Positions 6,595 to 19,606 are shown, counted from the first letter of the stretch. The stretch is 64,000 nt of DNA from Candidatus Magasanikiibacteriota bacterium (GCA_018651085.1 JABIEQ010000010.1:1688-65687), one strand, 5' to 3'. The notes: generated by a model from the sequence alone, not told the origin. A program made the numbers and translations.

Positions 6595-6998
6595 AGAATG
6601 AATATAATTGTACATGATTACCATTTTCTTTTGAAGTGTAGCTGTTGATATCTTCATAAACAGATATTGATTACCTTGTGTTTTATAACAAAATACTATA
6701 CCATAAATAGGACCTTTTGTCAATAGTTTTAACCCCTTTTTTAGCTTAACAAAGCCAAAATTTTATGCCTCGATCACCCCGTGGTGGACGCTCATATGGG
6801 TATGTTAATACCCCGCCTGATCACTCCCCTAAAAAGCGAAAAAAAATACAGAAAAATCAATCAACACCTTTAAAGAAAAAAAGAAATACTTCTTCTCGTT
6901 CTTTTGTTCCTCTATTACTCCTTCCTCTTCGTCTACTTGGGTGGCTATTAGTCCGTTTTTTTGGATTTTTTGCTCAGGTGCTCCGTAAAAAAGGAGGA

Positions 6999-9476
6999 AT
7001 GAAACAACTTTTTAAATATGGAGTGTTGAGCATGGTACTCCTTTTTGTACTAGCAGTAGTCTCAACCATTTGGATTGGGCGCAATCTCCCAGACCCTGAT
7101 AGGTTATCTGATAGACCAGTTGCTCAAAGTACAAAAATATATGACCGAACAGGCGACCATTTGTTATACGAAATTTTTGCTGATGAGAAACGAACGCTGG
7201 TGTCTTTAGAAGAAATACCTCAAGAACTTATTGATGCCGTCATTTCGACAGAAGACACTGCTTTTTATGAACATCGTGGTGTACGACCACTTAGTATTGC
7301 TCGATCTATTGTGTATGGCCTTGTAGGGAAAGGGCGTATTGGTGGAGGAGCATCAACACTTACACAACAACTTGTAAAAAATGCCATTCTTACAAATGAA
7401 CGAAAAATAACAAGAAAGGTAAAAGAAATACTGTTATCTGTTCGACTAGAACAAAAATATACAAAAGATCAGATTTTACAAATTTACTTTAATGAAATTC
7501 CATACGGATCAACAAACTATGGTGTGCAATCTGCTGCTCAAAGTTATTTTGGAAAAGATGTATCTAAACTCACCCTTCAAGAATCAGCGACACTTGCAGG
7601 CCTTCCAAGAGCTCCGTCAACATATCTTGGTAATCCTGAAGCATTAAAAAAACGACGAGACTTTGTCTTGTTTCGTATGGCGGCTGAAGGAAAAATAACA
7701 GAAGCCCAAAAAGTCGCTGCCCAAGCTGAACCACTAACGCTCTCTCGTTCGTTTAGTAATATCAAAGCGCCTCATTTTGTTTTGTATGTAAAAAAACAAT
7801 TAGCTAAACTTTATGGTGAGCAACTTGTTGAAACCGGTGGACTGAAAGTTATCACATCACTTGATTGGGACAAACAACAAATTGCTGAGCAAACCATTGA
7901 AGACTTAACAGAATCAACACTCACTACAGCAGGAGCAGATAATGCAGCCTTACTTGCCCTTGATCCAAGAAACGGACATATTTTGAGTCTGGTTGGTTCT
8001 CGAGATTTTTATGACGATGAGATTGATGGGCAGTTTAATGTGATTACTCTTGGATTACGCCAACCAGGATCAAGCATCAAACCAATTATTTATGCCGCAG
8101 CATTTGAAAAAGGGTATACCCCTGAGACAGTATTGTTTGATACTCGAACAAACTTTGCACCAAATGCGCGCGCGTATACACCTGAAAATTATGATCTTCA
8201 GGAACGTGGTCCAGTAACTATGAGACAAGCGCTTCAAGGATCATTAAATATTCCGGCAGTAAAAACACAATACCTTGTTGGGAACAATGCTGTCGGAGAC
8301 TTTTTGTCTCGTTTAAATTACACCACTCTTGATACAGATAGACTAGGACTTTCTCTTGTCCTTGGTGGAGGAGAAGTAAAACCCATGGAACATATTTCTT
8401 CGTTTGCCATTCTTGCAAACAATGGAAAAAATGTTACGCCAGTAAGTATTTTAAAAGTTGAAGATAACCAAGGCGCTATTCTTCAAGAATGGAAAGCAAC
8501 ACGAGCACAACAAGTAATTGATAACGATATTATCGCAACAATTACAAATGTGCTTCAAGACGATGAGGCTCGTGCATATTTATTTGGTGCAGGCGGTGTG
8601 CTGACACTCCCAGGAAGACCCGTTGCGGCAAAGACAGGAACAACAAATAATTATAAAGACGCTTGGACTGTTGGATACACTCCAAGTCTGGTTACAGGTG
8701 TGTGGGCAGGAAACACAAATAATAAATCAATGACGGTTGGATTTGGGGGAAGTCGAGTAGCGGCACCTATTTGGCAAAAATTCATGACAGAGGCGCTAAA
8801 AGATACCAAGGTTGAATCTTTCCCAACACCACCAGCTAATGACGCTGAGAAGCCCGTTTTACGCGGCTCACAAGGTGGTGGCATTACATTGAAGATCGAT
8901 AAAGTTACTAATAAACTTGCAACGACTTCAACGCCACCACAATATATTGTTGAGCGAACATATATTCCACCTCATTCTATTTTGCATTACGTTAAAAAAG
9001 ATGATCCTCGTGGAAGCGTTCCAAAAGATCCTAATGATGATTTTCAATATCACATTTGGGAAGCGTCTATTCAAGACTGGATAAAAAGAAAACAAGAAGA
9101 AGACGAAACATGGGAAGTAAGCTTTGACGAACCTCCAACAGAATATGATGATGTCCACTCTCTTGAACTTATACCAACTCTTAAAGTGGTGTTCCCTGCA
9201 CCAAGCAGTACCGTATCAGGAGACATTCTTAACACCGATATTCGAGTGAGTGCCCCTCGTGGTATTACTCGAGTTATTTATAGGGTTGATCAAAAGTATG
9301 TTGGTGTTGTGCGCGAACATCCGTTTAACCTTGTGTATGAGACCGGTGGCTTATCTGACGGAGAACATATACTGACCATTATTGTTGAAGACGATATTGG
9401 AAATAGCATTCGAGAAACAGTTCCTTTCACTTTTCTTAAACAAAAAGATCCTGAACAGAAAAAAGAAGACCTATAA
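6999..9476 (+). CDS. class A penicillin-binding protein (glycosyltransferase GT51 plus transpeptidase) with about 200-aa C-terminal extension
   Basis: ATG 6999 is preceded by perfect SD aaaaaaggagga. GT51 motifs EDTAFYEHRGV, GGGASTLTQQLVKN, RKVKEILL. Transpeptidase motifs PGSSIKP, KTGTT. The in-frame upstream extension back to 6765 is noted separately. Confidence 0.9.
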   Translation: MKQLFKYGVLSMVLLFVLAVVSTIWIGRNLPDPDRLSDRPVAQSTKIYDRTGDHLLYEIFADEKRTLVSLEEIPQELIDAVISTEDTAFYEHRGVRPLSIARSIVYGLVGKGRIGGGASTLTQQLVKNAILTNERKITRKVKEILLSVRLEQKYTKDQILQIYFNEIPYGSTNYGVQSAAQSYFGKDVSKLTLQESATLAGLPRAPSTYLGNPEALKKRRDFVLFRMAAEGKITEAQKVAAQAEPLTLSRSFSNIKAPHFVLYVKKQLAKLYGEQLVETGGLKVITSLDWDKQQIAEQTIEDLTESTLTTAGADNAALLALDPRNGHILSLVGSRDFYDDEIDGQFNVITLGLRQPGSSIKPIIYAAAFEKGYTPETVLFDTRTNFAPNARAYTPENYDLQERGPVTMRQALQGSLNIPAVKTQYLVGNNAVGDFLSRLNYTTLDTDRLGLSLVLGGGEVKPMEHISSFAILANNGKNVTPVSILKVEDNQGAILQEWKATRAQQVIDNDIIATITNVLQDDEARAYLFGAGGVLTLPGRPVAAKTGTTNNYKDAWTVGYTPSLVTGVWAGNTNNKSMTVGFGGSRVAAPIWQKFMTEALKDTKVESFPTPPANDAEKPVLRGSQGGGITLKIDKVTNKLATTSTPPQYIVERTYIPPHSILHYVKKDDPRGSVPKDPNDDFQYHIWEASIQDWIKRKQEEDETWEVSFDEPPTEYDDVHSLELIPTLKVVFPAPSSTVSGDILNTDIRVSAPRGITRVIYRVDQKYVGVVREHPFNLVYETGGLSDGEHILTIIVEDDIGNSIRETVPFTFLKQKDPEQKKEDL

Positions 9477-9518: not shown

Positions 9519-10646
9519 TTACTGACGAATAGGCATGACTATGTATAAGTAATCTTCACGATTGTGTGGACGAAGCATACAGGGAGCATCACTACTATTC
9601 AAAAGAAAATCTCCTTTTTCTTCAAACTGAGATAATCCATCAAGGACATACCGATGATTCAATAAAATGGAATTTTCTTCTCCAGTTATTTCTACATCTA
9701 CTTCTGAGGCATGTTCACCTGTTTGTGTACTTGTTGACGAGACACCAATTGAACTGTTTTCCACGTTTAAATCAAACGACACGGCGTTTACCCCCATGGT
9801 TGTAAACAAACTTGCTGCTTTGATTTTTTTCTTTACGATGTCAACGGGAAATGTTGCTGTTGTTTTAAAGCTTTCAGGAATAATTTGAACATAATCTGGG
9901 TAGGTTCCATCAATAATGCGTGATGTCATCTGTATTCCCTGAAAAAGCATCGCAATTTGATTATCACTAATATGTAATTCAACAGTCATGTCTCCCTCCA
10001 TACCTTTTTGTGAAGAAATCAGTCTTGCCATTTCATACACGGTTTTAGCAGGGATAATACAAGTTACCGTATCAACTCCTCCAGCAAGGGACACTTTCTT
10101 TTCTGCGAGACGGTATGAATCCGTAGCAGCTAAAATTAAACCACTGTATCGTTCTGTTTTAAATCCCATGTACACACCAGAAAGTTCTGGTCGTATTTCA
10201 TTTTTAGCGGCAGCAAAGACCACACTAGAAAGCGCATCTCTAAATGGTGCTGCACTGAGGGTAAATGTTTGAGCTTCTTGGATTGCAGGGATAACAGGAT
10301 ATTCGTCAGCGGGGATGCCTTTTATTTTTGTACTTGAGCTTCCGCTTTTTACAAGGAGTTCATTTCCTTTAAGTGTTACGTCGACTTGTTCACTACCAAG
10401 AAGGTTTACATAATCTGTAAGCGTTTTTGCTGGAACAGTAAACGATCCTGTTTGTTCTATTTTTCCTCTGAGTGTTGTTTGTACGGCTATCTCTAGATTT
10501 GTACTAATAACTTCAATATGCGCTTCGTGCGCTTTTATTAAAATATTAGTGAGTATAGGGAGGTTCACTTGTTTCCCTGCAATACCACTTACTACGGTAA
10601 GTGCATGTGCTAAGTTTTCTTTGGTACACGTAAATTTCATATACAC
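9519..10646 (-). CDS. dnaN: DNA polymerase III beta sliding clamp
   Basis: 375 aa. MKFTCTKENLAHALTVVSGIAGKQVNLPILTNILIKA... has the three-domain clamp architecture. Sits immediately downstream of dnaA. Confidence 0.9.
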   Translation of the reverse strand: MYMKFTCTKENLAHALTVVSGIAGKQVNLPILTNILIKAHEAHIEVISTNLEIAVQTTLRGKIEQTGSFTVPAKTLTDYVNLLGSEQVDVTLKGNELLVKSGSSSTKIKGIPADEYPVIPAIQEAQTFTLSAAPFRDALSSVVFAAAKNEIRPELSGVYMGFKTERYSGLILAATDSYRLAEKKVSLAGGVDTVTCIIPAKTVYEMARLISSQKGMEGDMTVELHISDNQIAMLFQGIQMTSRIIDGTYPDYVQIIPESFKTTATFPVDIVKKKIKAASLFTTMGVNAVSFDLNVENSSIGVSSTSTQTGEHASEVDVEITGEENSILLNHRYVLDGLSQFEEKGDFLLNSSDAPCMLRPHNREDYLYIVMPIRQ

Positions 10647-10922
10647 AGGTTGCTTAAAGGTCTTTTCCTTTTCTTTTTATATATTAAATAGTAGTAGTAG
10701 TAAGGGAGTGGAAAAGTAGGATAACTGTTTTTTTCTTTCCTTCACCCAGCCAATAAATGAACTTATCCCCTTGTTTGCTGACTGTTATATGATTGGCATT
10801 TGTCTGTGGGTATGTTTTTTTCTTATTTTTTTGTGTGTGTATAAGTCGATGTTTTTCCACATGTGATGTCTTTGTTTATTGATGTTGCCCACATAGTTAT
10901 ACGTAGGATTATCCGCGAAAGA

Positions 10923-12338
10923 TTACACAGTGCGCGCTCTTTGCTTTATAAGTTCTAGCTCTTCACGCATTTTTGCACTCTCTTTTATAGCATTTTGAAT
11001 CTTTGTGTGTGCATGCATTGCTGTTGTATGATCTCTTCCTCCGAGTTCTTGTCCAATTGCAGGATACGACATCTTCAGTTCGTCTCGAAGAAGGAACATC
11101 GCGATTTGTCTTGGAAGTGATAATCTTTTTTCTCTACTTTTTCCTCTAATGTCTTCAAGGGTAATGTCGTAAAACTTTACAATAAGTGCTATAAGTTCTT
11201 TTGGTGTAAGGATCTTTTTAAGACTTGTACTTTCAAAGCTTGCAAGTATAGAGTTTACCGTCTCTTTGCTTGGTGATATATTTTTTAGTTCATGATATGC
11301 AATCACCTTGTTTAGTGCGCCTTCAAGTTCTCTAATATTACTTTTTACTTTTTCTGCAATGATTTGAATAATATTTTCTGTTAAACCATAATTTTTTTCT
11401 TGGCATTTTGATTGGAGAATGGCAGCTCTTGTTTCTAGGTCAGGTGCTGAAATGTCTGCAATCATACCCCATTCAAATCTGCTTCGTAGACGATCTTCAA
11501 GTGCAGGGATAGCTTTTGGTGGTCGATCACTTGTAAGGACGACTTGTCTTCCGTGTTGGTGAAGTTCGTTAAAGGTGTGAAAAAATTCTTCTTGAGTTTG
11601 TTCTTTTCCTCCTATAAATTGAATGTCATCAATTAAGAGCAGATCAACATTTCTATATCGTTCTTTAAATTCTTTTGCACGCCCTTCTTTTACAGAAGAC
11701 ACAAATTCATTGGTGAACTTTTCTGAACTCACGTAGAGAATTTTTGTGTTTGGGTTTTCTGTAAGCATTTGGTCAGCAATGGCTTGAAGCAAATGCGTTT
11801 TTCCAAGTCCTACCCCACCGTATATAAATAATGGGTTATAAGCGTCTCCTGGGCGATTTGCAACGGCTTTTGCAGCTGCGTGTGCTAATTCATTTTGTTT
11901 CCCTACAATAAAGGTTGCAAAAGTATACTTTTTATTTAACCCAAACTGTGATGCTGATAACGTTGAGCGTTGATTTCCTGGATTTCGTTGGTATTGATAT
12001 CCTTGTGGTTGTTGTGCTGCTGGTTGTGTTGGGGCTGATGTTGCTCGAATAGGGGCACTTATAACAGCTTCTTGTTCTTCGACGTGTTTGATGTTTCCTA
12101 CGTTGTACTCTACCTTCTTAATAGGTTTTGATGTTACTCGTTCAAGAGATTTTACAACGTCAGAGTGGTATTTCTTTTGGAGCCAGCTTTGTGTAAAGGT
12201 ATTTGGTACAATTATGATAACGTTTCCTTCAGTATATTCACTAATACCGGTGTGTTTAAACCAGGTGGTGAAGTTTGCTTTAGAAATAGAGAGTTCAAAC
12301 TCGGCGAGAACAGCTTGCCAGATTTCATGATTGGTCAT
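10923..12338 (-). CDS. dnaA: chromosomal replication initiator DnaA
   Basis: 471 aa. AAA+ Walker A GGVGLGKTHLL. C-terminal DNA-binding signature LGGRDHTTAMHAHTKI. Confidence 0.95.
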   Translation of the reverse strand: MTNHEIWQAVLAEFELSISKANFTTWFKHTGISEYTEGNVIIIVPNTFTQSWLQKKYHSDVVKSLERVTSKPIKKVEYNVGNIKHVEEQEAVISAPIRATSAPTQPAAQQPQGYQYQRNPGNQRSTLSASQFGLNKKYTFATFIVGKQNELAHAAAKAVANRPGDAYNPLFIYGGVGLGKTHLLQAIADQMLTENPNTKILYVSSEKFTNEFVSSVKEGRAKEFKERYRNVDLLLIDDIQFIGGKEQTQEEFFHTFNELHQHGRQVVLTSDRPPKAIPALEDRLRSRFEWGMIADISAPDLETRAAILQSKCQEKNYGLTENIIQIIAEKVKSNIRELEGALNKVIAYHELKNISPSKETVNSILASFESTSLKKILTPKELIALIVKFYDITLEDIRGKSREKRLSLPRQIAMFLLRDELKMSYPAIGQELGGRDHTTAMHAHTKIQNAIKESAKMREELELIKQRARTV

Positions 12339-12718
12339 AGATATGTGGAAAAAAGGAAGAAATTAGAGGTGAAATATGTGTGTAACCTCATTTTAGCACA
12401 AAACCTTTTTCTAAAAAATTGCTTTACTTAGCCAAAAGTTAGTAATATGGGGATAAGTTGTGCACAGTGTGGATAAGTGTCTCTTCGTTTGTGGTCATTC
12501 TTGTTTATGTGTAGGGCTTTTTTATTTTTTCGGAAAGGTTTGTCTGTCTTTTTGTTTTTTTTATTTTTTCCTTTGTTAAGAGAAAACCTTGACATATTTC
12601 CTCTTTTTCGTTATAGTGATATCGCTTTACAAGTGAGGTCGTGTCGCAAGAGTTATTTGTGATAAAGATCTCCATTTTTTAATATAAAGCGTTGCCGACT
12701 ATTCTATTTTTGTAATAT
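12339..12718. promoter_or_regulatory. divergent rpmH/dnaA intergenic region with DnaA boxes and AT-rich tract; candidate oriC or dnaA promoter
   Basis: Perfect TGTGGATAA at 12468-12476 and GGGGATAAG at 12449. T-rich tract at 12520-12580. Classic rpmH<->dnaA arrangement. Confidence 0.45.
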
Positions 12719-12988
12719 ATGCCTAAAAGAACATTTCAACCAAATCAACGTCGTCGTCGTAAAAAACACGGATTTCGTAAACGAATGGGTACGAAACAAG
12801 GGAAAGTGATATTAAAAAGACGTCGTGTTCGTGGACGTGATACGTTAACCGCTTCATGTGGACTTAGCCTAAAGCAACGTCGAAAGACTGGGCGCAAAAA
12901 AGGGCGAGTAAAGATTACCAAAAAATTTCATTCAAAACGACGAGTGAAAAAAGCGGTAAAGATGGCTGCAAAAGCAAAGAAATCATAA
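12719..12988 (+). CDS. rpmH: ribosomal protein L34 with unusual 44-aa Lys/Arg-rich C-terminal extension
   Basis: First 45 aa [46 protein letters not shown] form canonical L34. The ORF continues in frame to 89 aa. Confidence 0.8.
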
Positions 12989-13042
12989 TCAACGTAAAGA
13001 GCCTCGAAAAAACGGGGCTCTTTTGTTATACTTTTTACTAGT

Positions 13043-13423
13043 ATGGTACCAAGACAATATCGACTTAAACATAAAAAGGATTTTGATGCACTGTTTTCAG
13101 TGGGTCGTTTTGTTGGTGGTGATTGTGTACAGTTGAAAATATGGAAAATTAATTCGGAGACATTTCCAAAACGGAAGTACACGACAGATGATTTGAAAAT
13201 TGGTTTTGTTGTCAGTGTTAAGGTACATAAACGAGCGGTTATCCGTAATCGTATGAAACGTCGTATGCGAGAGGTTGTGCGCCTTATGTTAAAAGAACAG
13301 GCTCTGTTACCTGGATATTTAATTGCCGTTATGGCAAAGCCACAGATTGTTGATGCAACGTATGACGAAATTTCTGAATCAATTACTGCGGTGTTTCAAA
13401 AAGCTGGAATCGTAGTGTTATAA
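13043..13423 (+). CDS. rnpA: RNase P protein component
   Basis: 126 aa basic protein ...VSVKVHKRAVIRNRMKRRMRE... Lies in the conserved position after rpmH. Confidence 0.85.
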   Translation: MVPRQYRLKHKKDFDALFSVGRFVGGDCVQLKIWKINSETFPKRKYTTDDLKIGFVVSVKVHKRAVIRNRMKRRMREVVRLMLKEQALLPGYLIAVMAKPQIVDATYDEISESITAVFQKAGIVVL

Positions 13424-13427
13424 ATAT

Positions 13428-13691
13428 ATGCGTGTATTTCAACGGCTTCTTTTTTTTCCACGATATGTTTTTATGATATCTGTGAGGTTATATCAATTAT
13501 TGTTTTCTCCTGACCATAGTTTTTGGGCAAAAGATGCGTTTCCTGAAGGGTATTGTAAATTTTATCCGACGTGCAGTGAGTATGGTCATCAGGTATTTTT
13601 TAAATACGGTGTATTTCGTGGCGGTATAAAAACCGTGTGGCGAATTTTACGGTGTAATCCATGGTCAGCGGGTGGTATTGATAAACCGTAA
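13428..13691 (+). CDS. yidD: membrane protein insertion efficiency factor YidD
   Basis: YQLLFSP...CKFYPTCSEY...LRCNPWSAGGIDKP matches the YidD signature. Confidence 0.85.
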   Translation: MRVFQRLLFFPRYVFMISVRLYQLLFSPDHSFWAKDAFPEGYCKFYPTCSEYGHQVFFKYGVFRGGIKTVWRILRCNPWSAGGIDKP

Positions 13692-13695
13692 GTGT

Positions 13696-13923
13696 ATGAA
13701 AAACATTTTCGTACGGGTTCTTCCAAGATCTTCTAAAGAGGAAGTTGTTGGGTTTATGGCTAACGGTGTATTAAAAGTGAAGTTGACGACTCCACCAGTT
13801 GATGGGAAAGCGAATGAAAAACTTATTGATCTTCTTTCCTCATATTATAGTGTACATCGTTCTGCTGTCAGTATTGTCTCTGGTCATACGAGTAAAAATA
13901 AACACGTTTCTATAGAAGAGTAA
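13696..13923 (+). CDS. YggU/DUF167 family protein
   Basis: MKNIFVRVLPRSSKEEVVG...LKVKLTTPPVDGKANEKLIDLLS...VSIVSGHTSKNKHVSI fits DUF167. The ATG at 13696 follows the yidD stop. Confidence 0.7.
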   Translation: MKNIFVRVLPRSSKEEVVGFMANGVLKVKLTTPPVDGKANEKLIDLLSSYYSVHRSAVSIVSGHTSKNKHVSIEE

Positions 13924-16911: not shown

Positions 16912-17469
16912 TTAAGAACCTTCTTCTGGATTGATACCTTGTTTTTCATAAAAGAGTAGGGCTGCACGGGAGTGTCGGAGCTGTGCTTCATCAAGACCTA
17001 CTTTTAAACCGTCAGTAGTGTCATATTGGATACAGGCAAATACGGTTCCAATATATATGATGATTAAGGCTGGCCAGAAATGCCAAGGGGTTACAAAGAT
17101 TAACGTGGTTATCATAAGAGATAGTGCGATGGAAAATGCTGAGAATATCCAGAAGGTTATGGTCATGGCAAGAGTAAGTAGATTTTTTGGTATTCCGCCG
17201 AAGGAAACAGCAAACCATGCTCCTCCAAGGAACATCACTGGTGCTGCAAGTCCGATTGCAACAGTATTGAGGTCATTAATTTGGCCACTTATAAATCCTA
17301 AGATTGCCAGACTTAATGTAATTACATTAATCCATAGTATCTGACGATGTTTCATGATGTTTTCAAGGACGAAGTTTGTTTGGTGCTTTTTGATGTTTGT
17401 GGAAAAGAATTTTTTTAAGATTATATAGCGTAGTAGGTAATAGAATGGGTCTATTTTTTGAAGTTGCAT
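16912..17469 (-). CDS. hypothetical polytopic membrane protein
   Basis: 4-5 predicted TM helices. No recognisable family. Forms an apparent operon with lspA and the dksA-like gene. Confidence 0.4.
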   Translation of the reverse strand: MQLQKIDPFYYLLRYIILKKFFSTNIKKHQTNFVLENIMKHRQILWINVITLSLAILGFISGQINDLNTVAIGLAAPVMFLGGAWFAVSFGGIPKNLLTLAMTITFWIFSAFSIALSLMITTLIFVTPWHFWPALIIIYIGTVFACIQYDTTDGLKVGLDEAQLRHSRAALLFYEKQGINPEEGS

Positions 17470-17483
17470 AAACCAGTCTTTTA

Positions 17484-17945
17484 TTAATTTCTTTTTTCAT
17501 TTATGAGAATAAGGATTGCCCCTACAACAATGAGTATATCAGCTATATTTATAACAGACGTTATAATACGGAGGTAATCAATAGTAATACTAAATAAAAA
17601 TCGATCAATAAGGTTTGATACTGCCCCTGCAATAACAAGACATGTTCCGAGTAAAAGAAGTGGTGTGTTTTTTTTCTTATGGAGTATGAATGTTATACCT
17701 CCTAAAAGGATTATTGGGGTAATGATAATAAGTAGTGCGTTTGGTACAGGAATTTCAAAGGCAATACCGGGGTTTGGGAGGTATTCCCAGCCAAGCCATG
17801 GTTCTATAAGGTACCAAGATCCTTTTGGGTTTGCTCTTGCTAGTGATTTTAGTGTTTGATCAAGAAATAATAAAAACCCGCTTGTGATGATGTACCAGAT
17901 TAAGCGGGTTTTTGTTGATGTTATTGTGTGAAGTTTATGATTCAT
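17484..17945 (-). CDS. lspA: lipoprotein signal peptidase (signal peptidase II)
   Basis: PNPGIAFEI...GAVSNLIDRF...VINIADILIVVG matches conserved LspA blocks. Confidence 0.8.
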   Translation of the reverse strand: MNHKLHTITSTKTRLIWYIITSGFLLFLDQTLKSLARANPKGSWYLIEPWLGWEYLPNPGIAFEIPVPNALLIIITPIILLGGITFILHKKKNTPLLLLGTCLVIAGAVSNLIDRFLFSITIDYLRIITSVINIADILIVVGAILILINEKRN

Positions 17946-18321
17946 CCGTAAGGGTTTTTTTGCAACTTACGCAAGACCCTGATGTTGCACGAGCGCGTAG
18001 GCGTTCTTTTGAGATTGGCTGATCACAATACTTACAAATACCATAGGTACCCTCTTTTAATCGATCTAGAGCCTTTTTCACGTCTCGTAGAGACTTCTCT
18101 AATGTCATCTCAAGTGGTTTGTTTACAGTGTATTGTTCTACTTCTTGAATATTGTCGTCTTCTTTATCTCCGTATTCTGGGAATGTTGCATTAAAGTCCC
18201 CTGCAACGTGAGGGTTTTTCTTTGTAAATTGTCCCAATTCTTTTTCTAGACGGCTTTTGTCTTCTGTGAGTGTGTCTGTCATCTCTTTGAGGAAAGTCTT
18301 TTCAAAAGGATTCTTAGTCAT
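17935..18321 (-). CDS. DksA/TraR-family C4 zinc-finger protein
   Basis: C-terminal CKYCDQPISKERLRARATSGSCVSCKK is a CxxC-x17-CxxC motif. Coiled N-terminus. Confidence 0.7.
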   Translation of the reverse strand: MTKNPFEKTFLKEMTDTLTEDKSRLEKELGQFTKKNPHVAGDFNATFPEYGDKEDDNIQEVEQYTVNKPLEMTLEKSLRDVKKALDRLKEGTYGICKYCDQPISKERLRARATSGSCVSCKKTLTDES

Positions 18322-18409
18322 ACAGATATAGGGTTACAATATGGCTAGTAGTATATATAATTCTTTTTTTCTTTTCAAGTTGTGTGAGGGTTTACAGTTT
18401 TTTGTATAT

Positions 18410-18800
18410 AAAAAAGAGACGCCTATGGCGTCTCTCGAAGACTCTTTGGGAGTACTAGACTCCTATCTATCTACCTCAATCATTATTTGGGGCAAATACA
18501 TAGGAGCATAGCAACTTGCTACCAAAGACTCGTAAGCTCCTCTACCGCTTGCAATGGTGTAAAATCCCGACAGCACATATAAACATACTGTATAAGTGGG
18601 AAGGCACCTAAGTTTTGGGCTTTCCTCTTTAATCCACTCGTGTTTAACGTTTTATGTTTGTTTTATTTGTAGTGGAGTGGGATCAGTAAAAGGGGGGGCC
18701 CAAAAGAGAAGCAGTAGATGAGTCTACACGCTCATTACACTAGGTGTAAGAGTGTGGCTACATCCAGGTTGTTGAATGATCTGTATATATAATAACACTT
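18410..18800 (-). ncRNA. candidate structured ncRNA (identity unresolved) ending in an intrinsic terminator
   Basis: About 400 bp of GC-elevated sequence with no ORF above 60 aa. On the minus strand, hairpin agagacgcc-ata-ggcgtctct plus T6 at 18415-18445 terminates a right-to-left transcript. Conserved RNase P, tmRNA and SRP blocks could not be matched by eye. Confidence 0.25.
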
Positions 18801-18839
18801 TTTTGCTAGGTTGTCAATGGTGTGAGTTGCTTTTTGCCT

Positions 18840-19140
18840 ATGTGTAGCCTTTTTTTTCTTTATTTTTGGCATTTAAAAAAAGTATAGACTAGTCTATACT
18901 TTCATTTATTTGGTTGATTTATCCCCATTTTAGGGGAGTTTTACACAGAGTTATCCACAATGTATAGATTAGTCTATACAAATAGCCGATATATACTGTG
19001 AATATATCGTGTATAGCTTCTTTTGTTCCTGTTTATTTCTTGGGGATAGCTCTTTTTTCTCTTGTTTTCCACAGTCTTAGGTGGTTTTACACAGATTTAT
19101 CCCCTTTTGTAGAGAGTAGTGTATACAAACAGAGTTTTGC
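18840..19140. promoter_or_regulatory. cluster of DnaA-box-like 9-mers and 16-bp palindromes; candidate oriC or DnaA-regulated/titration locus
   Basis: TTATCCACA perfect at 18951-59. TTATCCCCA at 18919-27. TTATCCCCT at 19097-105. TTTTCCACA at 19065-73. gttttacacag appears twice, each adjacent to a box. Palindromes TATAGACTAGTCTATA (18883) and TATAGATTAGTCTATA (18963). AT tract at 18850-18880. Confidence 0.4.
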
Positions 19141-19189
19141 TCTTTTTTTATTGGAGGTATTTTTGTATACTATTGATATCTATTTTTAT

Positions 19190-19606
19190 ATGTCTATTCG
19201 ATTTTTTTTGGCGACAAAGGCTTTTATCTCTTATCAAGGGCAAATTCTGGTTCTTCGTGAATCCCCCTCTTATGAAGATACGAGCAATACTGGTTTTTAT
19301 GATGTGGTCGGCGGTCGGTTAGATCCCGGAGAACACTTCGGTGATGCCCTTACTAGAGAGGTATACGAGGAAACTGGATTAAAAGTAACGATGGGTCGTC
19401 CCTTTTTTGTGAATGAGTGGAGACCTGTGGTTCGAGGAGAACAATGGCACATCGTAGGTATATTTTTTGCCTGTGAGGCTGATAATCAGACTGTTGTGCT
19501 AAGTAAGGACCACGATGATTATAAATGGATTGATCCTAAAGAGTATAAACAAGAACACATTATAGAAAATTTGTCCTTTGCCTTTGATGCATATCTTACT
19601 CGTTAG
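19190..19606 (+). CDS. NUDIX hydrolase
   Basis: Nudix box GGRLDPGEHFGDALTREVYEETGL. Start set at ATG 19190. The ORF track 5' extension 18998-19189 is non-protein-like. Confidence 0.8.
   Translation: MSIRFFLATKAFISYQGQILVLRESPSYEDTSNTGFYDVVGGRLDPGEHFGDALTREVYEETGLKVTMGRPFFVNEWRPVVRGEQWHIVGIFFACEADNQTVVLSKDHDDYKWIDPKEYKQEHIIENLSFAFDAYLTR

Follow-up and report, generated by a model that had tools for sequence, protein, structure and literature searches.

A conserved, origin-proximal cluster of DnaA boxes and phased palindromes upstream of a structured RNA gene in Candidatus Magasanikbacteria

The stretch of 64,000 nucleotides analysed in the present study (the window) originates from the genome of an uncultured member of Candidatus Magasanikbacteria (Patescibacteria/CPR) and harbours, at positions 18879-18982, a compact element composed of a palindrome (pal1), three co-oriented DnaA boxes (A, B and C) and a second palindrome (pal2). 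This element is conserved across an order of ultra-small (CPR) bacteria and is not a replication origin. Judged from its sequence and genomic setting, it is probably a DnaA-binding regulatory module of lineage-specific architecture which is located outside oriC, in the upstream region of the promoter of a structured RNA gene. To our knowledge, the replication control of CPR bacteria has remained almost uncharacterized, as these cannot be grown alone. From sequence, the analysis assigns the origin of Magasanikbacteria to a Bacillus-like module in the dnaA-dnaN gap. It further predicts a second, deeply conserved DnaA site, the rigid geometry and phasing of which predict a specific partner protein, and describes a large structured RNA with strong covariation and without Rfam family, whose promoter appears to be wired to the predicted DnaA site. 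For automated origin finding the case advises caution, since dense DnaA boxes and symmetric elements near dnaA do not necessarily mark an origin.

Pal1 (18879-18902) is a perfect 24-bp palindrome (AAAGTATAGACTAGTCTATACTTT, 100 % complementary) with the core GTATAGACTAGTCTATAC at 18882-18899 and is proposed as candidate operator for a dimeric DNA-binding protein; its counterparts in related loci are found 50-135 nt to the left of box C. The three boxes are located on the plus strand. Box A (18919-18927, TTATCCCCA) contains one mismatch and has the family consensus TTATCCACA. Box B (18939-18947, TTTTACACA; two mismatches, family consensus TTwTCCACA) serves as the weak upstream partner in a double DnaA box and is always positioned 3 bp before box C (18951-18959), which is the perfect box TTATCCACA already recognized in the initial annotation. 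Pal2 (18961-18980, TGTATAGATTAGTCTATACA; core GTATAGATTAGTCTATAC at 18962-18979) begins 2 nt past box C. The palindrome can be represented as TTTGTATAGACTAGTCTATACAAA, and the cores of pal1 and pal2, earlier described as near-identical and about 80 bp apart, are indeed spaced by 80 nt.

A degenerate second copy of the composite, 146-147 nt downstream of the first, extends over 19065-19126 (plus strand) and comprises box A' (19065-19073, TTTTCCACA, one mismatch), box B' (19085-19093, TTTTACACA), box C' (19097-19105, TTATCCCCT, two mismatches) and the degenerate palindrome pal3 (19109-19126, GTAGAGAGTAGTGTATAC), the latter having escaped the initial annotation. The region is hence made up of two copies of the series box A, box B, box C and palindrome. 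This agrees with the earlier noted repeated unit GTTTTACACAGA, which is present at 18938 and 19084 and is followed by a box each time. Three one-mismatch boxes had been claimed next to the perfect one; this holds for TTATCCCCA and TTTTCCACA, but TTATCCCCT deviates at two positions, reducing the total of boxes with at most one mismatch from four to three. The reported gatatat/atatatc inverted repeat (~18988-19009) exists and is not conserved in other species, and an AT-rich tract and the RNA gene adjoin the element as had been described.

Across the whole window DnaA boxes are not enriched (29 found versus 21 expected). Clusters of three boxes within 160 nt did not arise in any of 100 Markov simulations of the window, and the window itself contains only two of them, i.e. 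the present region and the dnaA-rpmH gap. The palindrome occurs in three copies in this region and nowhere else in the 64 kb (0.01 expected). The supposition that box density in the region exceeds that of the dnaA-proximal gaps could not be maintained: with up to one mismatch, three boxes each were counted in the region and the dnaA-rpmH gap and two in the dnaA-dnaN gap, and with up to two mismatches the respective numbers are eight, six and seven. That the feature is real follows from its conservation in other species.

The element resides in the right half of an 868-bp non-coding gap (18322-19189), which is bordered on its right by a Nudix gene (19190-19606, plus strand) and on its left by the minus-strand genes for a 185-aa protein, LspA and a DksA/YteA-like protein (16912-18321). 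Further to the left, the window encodes a PBP (6765-9476, plus), DnaN (9519-10646, minus), DnaA (10923-12338, minus) and rpmH-rnpA-yidD (12719-13923, plus), followed by a trigger factor gene (minus) between yidD and the gene for a LysM-M23 peptidase, the latter (plus) preceding the gene for the 185-aa protein. Gene-strand bias to the right of the origin is about 50/50 and therefore of no use as origin indicator. The canonical parS sequence TGTTTCACGTGAAACA was not detected with up to three mismatches anywhere in the origin-proximal 64 kb, ARAGORN found no tmRNA, and no integrase gene is present near the element.

The 80 closest DnaA loci (species representatives) all belong to Magasanikbacteria or Patescibacteria MAGs (57-73 % DnaA identity). 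An nhmmer search with the window stretch 18791-19189 as query matched the portion ~18870-19040 in further species, in each case past the DksA-like gene; the DnaA proteins of these species are only 57-73 % identical. The element was found in all 24 species loci with enough sequence upstream of the DksA-like gene. Nineteen loci could be anchored on box C; their order is lspA, DksA-like gene, an RNA region of ~450-600 nt, a TTGACA promoter, AT-rich DNA and then the element, which itself reads pal1, box A, 11 nt, box B, 3 nt, box C, 2-4 nt and pal2. Box C matches the consensus exactly in 16 of these 19 loci, which were found independently of any sequence pattern. Since the DksA-like gene is located within ~10 kb of dnaA in 28 of the 80 species loci, the same applies to the element.

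A scan of metagenomes with a pattern composed of box C and a generic palindrome yielded 123 matches, 76 of which also possess boxes A and B at the fixed spacing, neither box having been part of the search pattern; the chance of both occurring in register amounts by our arithmetic to ~5e-5 per match. In this set, the statistics of box C and pal2 are conditioned on the pattern and those of boxes A and B, pal1, promoter and neighbouring genes are not, and related contigs are phylogenetically non-independent. All but one of the matches with boxes A and B and enough left flank carry the DksA-like gene or lspA 560-1400 nt to the left. Over 79 non-identical contexts, the distance from A to B (start to start) is 20 nt in 77 and that from B to C is 12 nt, all boxes point in the same direction, and box A mostly reads TTATCCACA or TTATCCCCA; the spacer between box C and pal2 measures 2-4 nt in all 76 contexts with a located pal2. 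Over about 100 contigs, no non-coding letters of the region are better conserved than those of the DnaA boxes, whose spacing and orientation are fixed. The window and four other contigs (L128, L151, L165 and L180) share a second composite located 146-149 nt (~14 helical turns) downstream. The 60 nt to the left of the element have a mean A+T content of 74 % over related loci, and the gene on the far side changes from species to species, a convergent orientation being seen in 20 of 38 cases.

The cumulative GC skew of the window falls to 6.9 kb, stays flat to ~12 kb and then rises steadily; at 18.9 kb it exceeds the minimum by ~400 counts, and the rise continues even across the minus-strand genes at 16.9-18.8 kb. 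Among 23 related element-bearing loci, the skew minimum is mostly situated at or within ~0.6 kb of the dnaA-dnaN gap (locus position 11.4-11.9 kb) and never at the element, irrespective of the side of dnaA on which the latter is located. The basal unwinding system (BUS) of bacterial origins consists of at least three DnaA-trios (3'-NAN-5', typically 3'-GAT-5') no more than 16 bp downstream of a DnaA box (PMC8287927). In the window, the dnaA-dnaN gap (10689-10724, dnaA-sense strand) reads TTATCCTAC TTTTCCACT CCC TTA CTA CTA CTA CTA followed by tttaatatataaaaag, corresponding to tandem boxes, a GC spacer, five DnaA-trios (TAG/TAA, at 10689-10703) and an AT-rich tract. Read over 10660-10724, the gap displays the AT-rich tract, TAGTAGTAGTAGTAA (the five trios), a GGGAG spacer and the tandem DnaA boxes, the latter on the dnaA-sense strand. 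At least three consecutive YTA triplets after a GC spacer are contained in 51 of 74 related dnaA-dnaN gaps, as compared to a background of 0.08 per kb-strand. Thus, the origin of Magasanikbacteria appears to be Bacillus-like, with the predicted unwinding module between dnaA and dnaN. The dnaA-rpmH gap (12339-12718) contains three boxes with at most one mismatch (12344, 12448 and 12468), all on the dnaA-sense strand, and probably constitutes that half of a bipartite, Bacillus-like origin region which serves dnaA autoregulation.

In the left half of the gap that contains the element, no ORF was detected. This half encodes a structured non-coding RNA of ~375 nt (18406-18782, minus strand, predicted ends; intrinsic terminator at 18436..18414) with the promoter TTGACA-17-TATTAT (18817..18789, minus strand), which has a TG extension and 11 of 12 matches; the element is located directly upstream. 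Relatives possess the same promoter and terminator, 280-470 nt apart. An alignment of the RNA from ten representatives comprises 59 pairs, 30 of which are affected by compensatory changes, with 89 % of the cells paired as compared to 42-51 % upon sliding the partners; none of 500 shuffles reached the observed value. Rfam provided no family for the RNA (window and eleven related regions), the window and nine loci having been searched at gathering thresholds and three RNA regions at E<=10, with only tRNAs and noise returned. The RNA contains a conserved A-rich loop (AAAACAAAAACAAAAG in relatives), is invariably located between the DnaA-box module and the DksA/YteA-like gene (with lspA next), and is transcribed away from the element, of which its gene is the only conserved neighbour.

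Two assignments of this RNA were discarded or disfavoured. The segment GAGGAAAGCCC...GGUGCC resembles CR-I of RNase P RNA, but pairs with the upstream strand (alignment columns 103-115 with 211-223) and not with the 3' strand as P4 would, and it has no Rfam match. A role as leader of the DksA-like gene is unlikely in view of the strong terminator and of the TTGAC-17-TATAAT promoter which the DksA-like gene possesses in every species read; owing to this promoter, the RNA is regarded as a separate transcription unit. In all loci with flank, 80-260 nt separate the -35 motif TTGACA from box C, and the -10 element is likewise conserved. The distance between promoter and pal1 is weakly periodic (R = 0.32, unique values), which is only suggestive of a phasing between the two. 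A palindrome is found inside the promoter spacer in L061 and L070, and in most species none overlaps the promoter core. The RNA gene, the DksA-like gene and lspA are read toward the origin, i.e. head-on to replication, in 20 of 27 placeable loci including the window, a tally from locus coordinates in which many loci probably represent one clade; a gene driven by so strong a promoter is not usually oriented in this manner.

The distances between pal1 and pal2 fall into the classes 62, 71, 81, 92, 102, 114, 124 and 135 nt and are phased at a period of 10.4 bp (Rayleigh R 0.62-0.65; 0.62 on unique values), a degree reached by none of 5000 uniform nulls. Since such periodicity is a property of duplex DNA, proteins would bind the element as double-stranded DNA. 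Pal1 and pal2 differ by 2.80 mismatches per 18 nt within a locus and by 3.25 between loci (permutation p = 0.0002), and some genomes carry two identical copies, each of which is imperfect as a palindrome without compensating changes. This within-locus likeness of imperfect palindromes argues against RNA hairpins and fits a single putative protein, the specificity of which would have drifted along with both sites. A further inverted repeat of 14 bp, GCTAA-N4-TTAGC, often followed by CAAAAT, was found in 26 of 78 loci (background 0.055 per kb), where it is located between box A and the RNA promoter, 60-240 nt to the left of box A (e.g. L061, L015, L062 and L176), and is degenerate or absent in the element of the window.

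Palindrome copies were also noticed elsewhere. Composites of palindrome and DnaA boxes away from the RNA gene are located at L087:13009 and L074:8746 (two more distant genomes), both directly downstream of dnaN with boxes flanking the palindrome on both sides, and at L066:881, 9 kb upstream of dnaA. They suggest that the association of the putative palindrome-binding factor with DnaA is not confined to a single locus, and hint that this factor is a general companion of DnaA and does not serve the RNA alone. At L015:8410, L021:8530, L062:6558 and in the RNA of L103, a variable hairpin region of the transcribed RNA itself contains the palindrome (e.g. TTTGTATAAAGTAATCTATACAAA). At L034:4941 and L044:5458, the copy GTATAGAAYAYTGTATAC occupies the same place within a predicted ORF of ~250 aa, and no DnaA boxes are adjacent. 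Among the neighbouring genes, none coding for a candidate palindrome-binding protein is conserved: the unassigned 185-aa protein is matched in only 2 of 80 related loci, and elsewhere in them, no link to the element emerged for the 335-aa, 864-aa and TrmB-like proteins, and the DksA/YteA-like protein was dismissed, as its family binds RNA polymerase and not DNA.

From the observed conservation, geometry, helical phasing, linkage to the RNA promoter and non-origin status of the element, we infer DnaA binding, a palindrome-binding protein, looping and a regulatory output. The three co-oriented boxes would form a head-to-tail landing pad for DnaA, in which the presumably strong box A is followed by an 11-bp spacer, the weak box B, a 3-bp spacer and the consensus box C. 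Pal2, a palindrome of 20-24 bp, abuts box C, and pal1 is placed a whole number of helical turns upstream. A putative dimeric protein could bind both palindromes on the same face of the DNA and would most likely bridge them, with the DnaA array enclosed between the two palindrome sites or held against pal2. This assembly would be located directly upstream of the near-consensus promoter of a structured RNA of 280-470 nt, and its most likely output would be a coupling of RNA transcription to the amount or nucleotide state of DnaA; due to the proximity of the origin, the element would also soak up some DnaA. A transcription-linked role is considered at least as likely as pure titration, because the element constitutes the upstream region of the RNA gene promoter. 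Counting against a regulatory module at the RNA promoter, a near-consensus promoter should need no activator, and the position of the palindrome mostly off the promoter core renders a simple repressor or activator picture incomplete.

Three other explanations were weighed against a regulatory module at the RNA promoter. A role of the element as true origin, as an additional origin or as the distal part of a bipartite origin is highly improbable. The cluster of DnaA boxes next to AT-rich DNA (74 % A+T over 60 nt on the left), the divergent intergenic region near dnaA and a box density comparable to that of the dnaA gaps are what such an origin might offer, but, relative to the boxes, this DNA is situated on the wrong side and coincides with the upstream region of the promoter. 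Of the features of a basal unwinding system, the element has the box cluster and lacks trios (no run of at least three YTA triplets after box C in any of the 79 contexts), a turn of the GC skew and a fixed position relative to dnaA and dnaN: it is separated from dnaA by between 1.2 and 10 kb, on either side and in both orientations, and in the window it is located 8.2 kb from the unwinding site. The initial annotation had considered a true oriC displaced from dnaA, to be checked by the GC-skew minimum. Instead of a minimum at the element, minimum and plateau were found at 6.9-12 kb, and this skew turn at 7-12 kb, together with the missing trios and the complete unwinding module of the dnaA-dnaN gap (trios in 51 of 74 loci), speaks against the proposal. 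Scarcely any credit is likewise given to the repeats being hairpins of a plus-strand transcript or remnants of mobile elements or attachment sites. The palindromes can indeed fold as hairpins, the right-hand flank is variable between species, and box A overlaps a small hairpin (TCCCC-N6-GGGGA); the apparent compensation in the latter (CCCC/GGGG versus CCAC/GTGG) is out of register between copies and is attributed to chance. Opposed to these points are the duplex-type periodicity of 10.4 bp, the imperfect palindromes that lack compensation and yet are alike as direct copies within a locus, and conserved letters that spell the DnaA consensus. Moreover, the best plus-strand promoter reaches at most 9 of 12 matches and there is no Rfam match, and a link to mobile elements was rejected, because viral contigs lack the composite (of 10 matches to the pattern, none has boxes A and B) and no integrase is nearby.

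The third alternative is a locus for the control of DnaA activity in the manner of datA or DARS, at which the box triad and an accessory protein on the palindromes, comparable in its role to IHF and Fis of E. coli, would titrate DnaA or alter its nucleotide state, with the RNA promoter being incidental or modulating occupancy; it is regarded as possible, if rather unlikely. As in minimal datA, boxes are co-oriented at optimised spacing with accessory sites beside them (PMC5742627), and E. coli datA also adjoins a stable-RNA (tRNA) gene, the transcription of which affects datA (PMC10950094). The element is origin-proximal on either replichore despite rearrangements, composites of palindrome and box directly follow dnaN in L087 and L074, and pal2, taking the position of the GC spacer and trios, could cap a DnaA filament. 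Three boxes, on the other hand, offer a small titration capacity, the head-to-head box pair that defines DARS is absent, and no homology to datA or DARS can be claimed. Furthermore, the linkage to an RNA promoter in one orientation is invariant in about 100 contigs, and a free-standing titration site needs none. In its general form, a datA-like titration or regulatory site, as the initial annotation had put forward alongside an origin, is supported by the conservation and the fixed spacing and orientation of the boxes in these contigs.

The regulatory module at the RNA promoter, which is the preferred reading, may be extended to a more specific and speculative one. In an origin, GC spacer and trios occupy the place taken here by pal2, so that a DnaA array formed on boxes A, B and C would meet the occupant of pal2. 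Conceivably, if with low probability, the element could be a replication-control device peculiar to CPR bacteria and without described counterpart, in which the growing end of a DnaA filament is capped by the palindrome protein within a phased loop and is coupled to a large, so far unclassified structured RNA that reports on initiation or feeds back to it. The palindrome protein would then be a new DnaA cofactor, which would explain the composites of palindrome and box beside dnaN, and the RNA would be a new cell-cycle RNA. More generally, control of the RNA by DnaA would link the initiation status to an RNA-based function in organisms of minimal regulation.

Comparison with described systems reveals shared and distinct traits. 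The basal unwinding system and the element both possess a tandem pair of co-oriented boxes with a gap of at most 3 bp (PMC8287927). The element differs in having a palindrome in the position of GC spacer and trios, and neither trios nor an AT-rich unwinding region follow downstream (0 of 79). E. coli DnaA binds in vivo to double boxes at promoters of its regulon, in which 2-3 bp separate two boxes of the same orientation and one box may be weak (PMC11317965); boxes B (weak, TTwTCCACA) and C (consensus), 3 bp apart, constitute such a double box. The 'oriCII' of P. aeruginosa, located upstream of gidA, is a DnaA-regulated promoter region, and likewise exemplifies a box cluster upstream of a promoter that may be mistaken for a second origin (PMC13438810). 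From double boxes and from oriCII, the element is set apart by an additional third box, paired palindromes and a non-coding RNA as predicted target in an uncultured CPR lineage.

The datA locus of E. coli stimulates the hydrolysis of DnaA-bound ATP, and IHF and Fis serve as accessory proteins of DARS2. The essential boxes of datA share one direction at constrained spacing, and one IHF-binding site is needed (PMC5742627). Direction and spacing of the boxes are correspondingly uniform and constrained in the element, which has further in common with datA putative accessory-protein site(s), the vicinity of the origin and an adjoining stable-RNA gene (PMC5742627; PMC10950094). Its conserved candidate accessory sites are two long palindromes of 20-24 bp, joined in a third of loci by the repeat GCTAA-N4-TTAGC; it further differs from datA in number and spacing of boxes, and its RNA leads away from it. 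The DARS core is composed of three boxes, with box I opposite to boxes II and III (PMC5742627). DARS1 and DARS2 of E. coli resemble the element in combining a three-box core with accessory protein sites, whereas all three boxes of the element are co-oriented in every instance. Because its boxes are co-oriented next to an accessory site and a head-to-head pair is absent, the predicted architecture of the element is nearer to datA than to DARS.

The best-supported comparison suggests the DnaA-box clusters outside oriC of B. subtilis (DBCs) as the closest described systems. These clusters are proposed to control neighbouring genes and, in retaining DnaA, to restrain initiation (PMC3245932, Okumura et al. 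2012). The element has neither sequence nor gene-context homology to any of the six B. subtilis DBCs and differs from them in its only three boxes, rigid 20/12-nt register and two phased palindromes, and in having as neighbour a gene for a structured RNA rather than for a protein. Like the DBCs, which are intergenic, outside but mostly near the origin and at promoters of neighbouring genes, the element is an intergenic cluster of DnaA boxes near the origin and next to a promoter.
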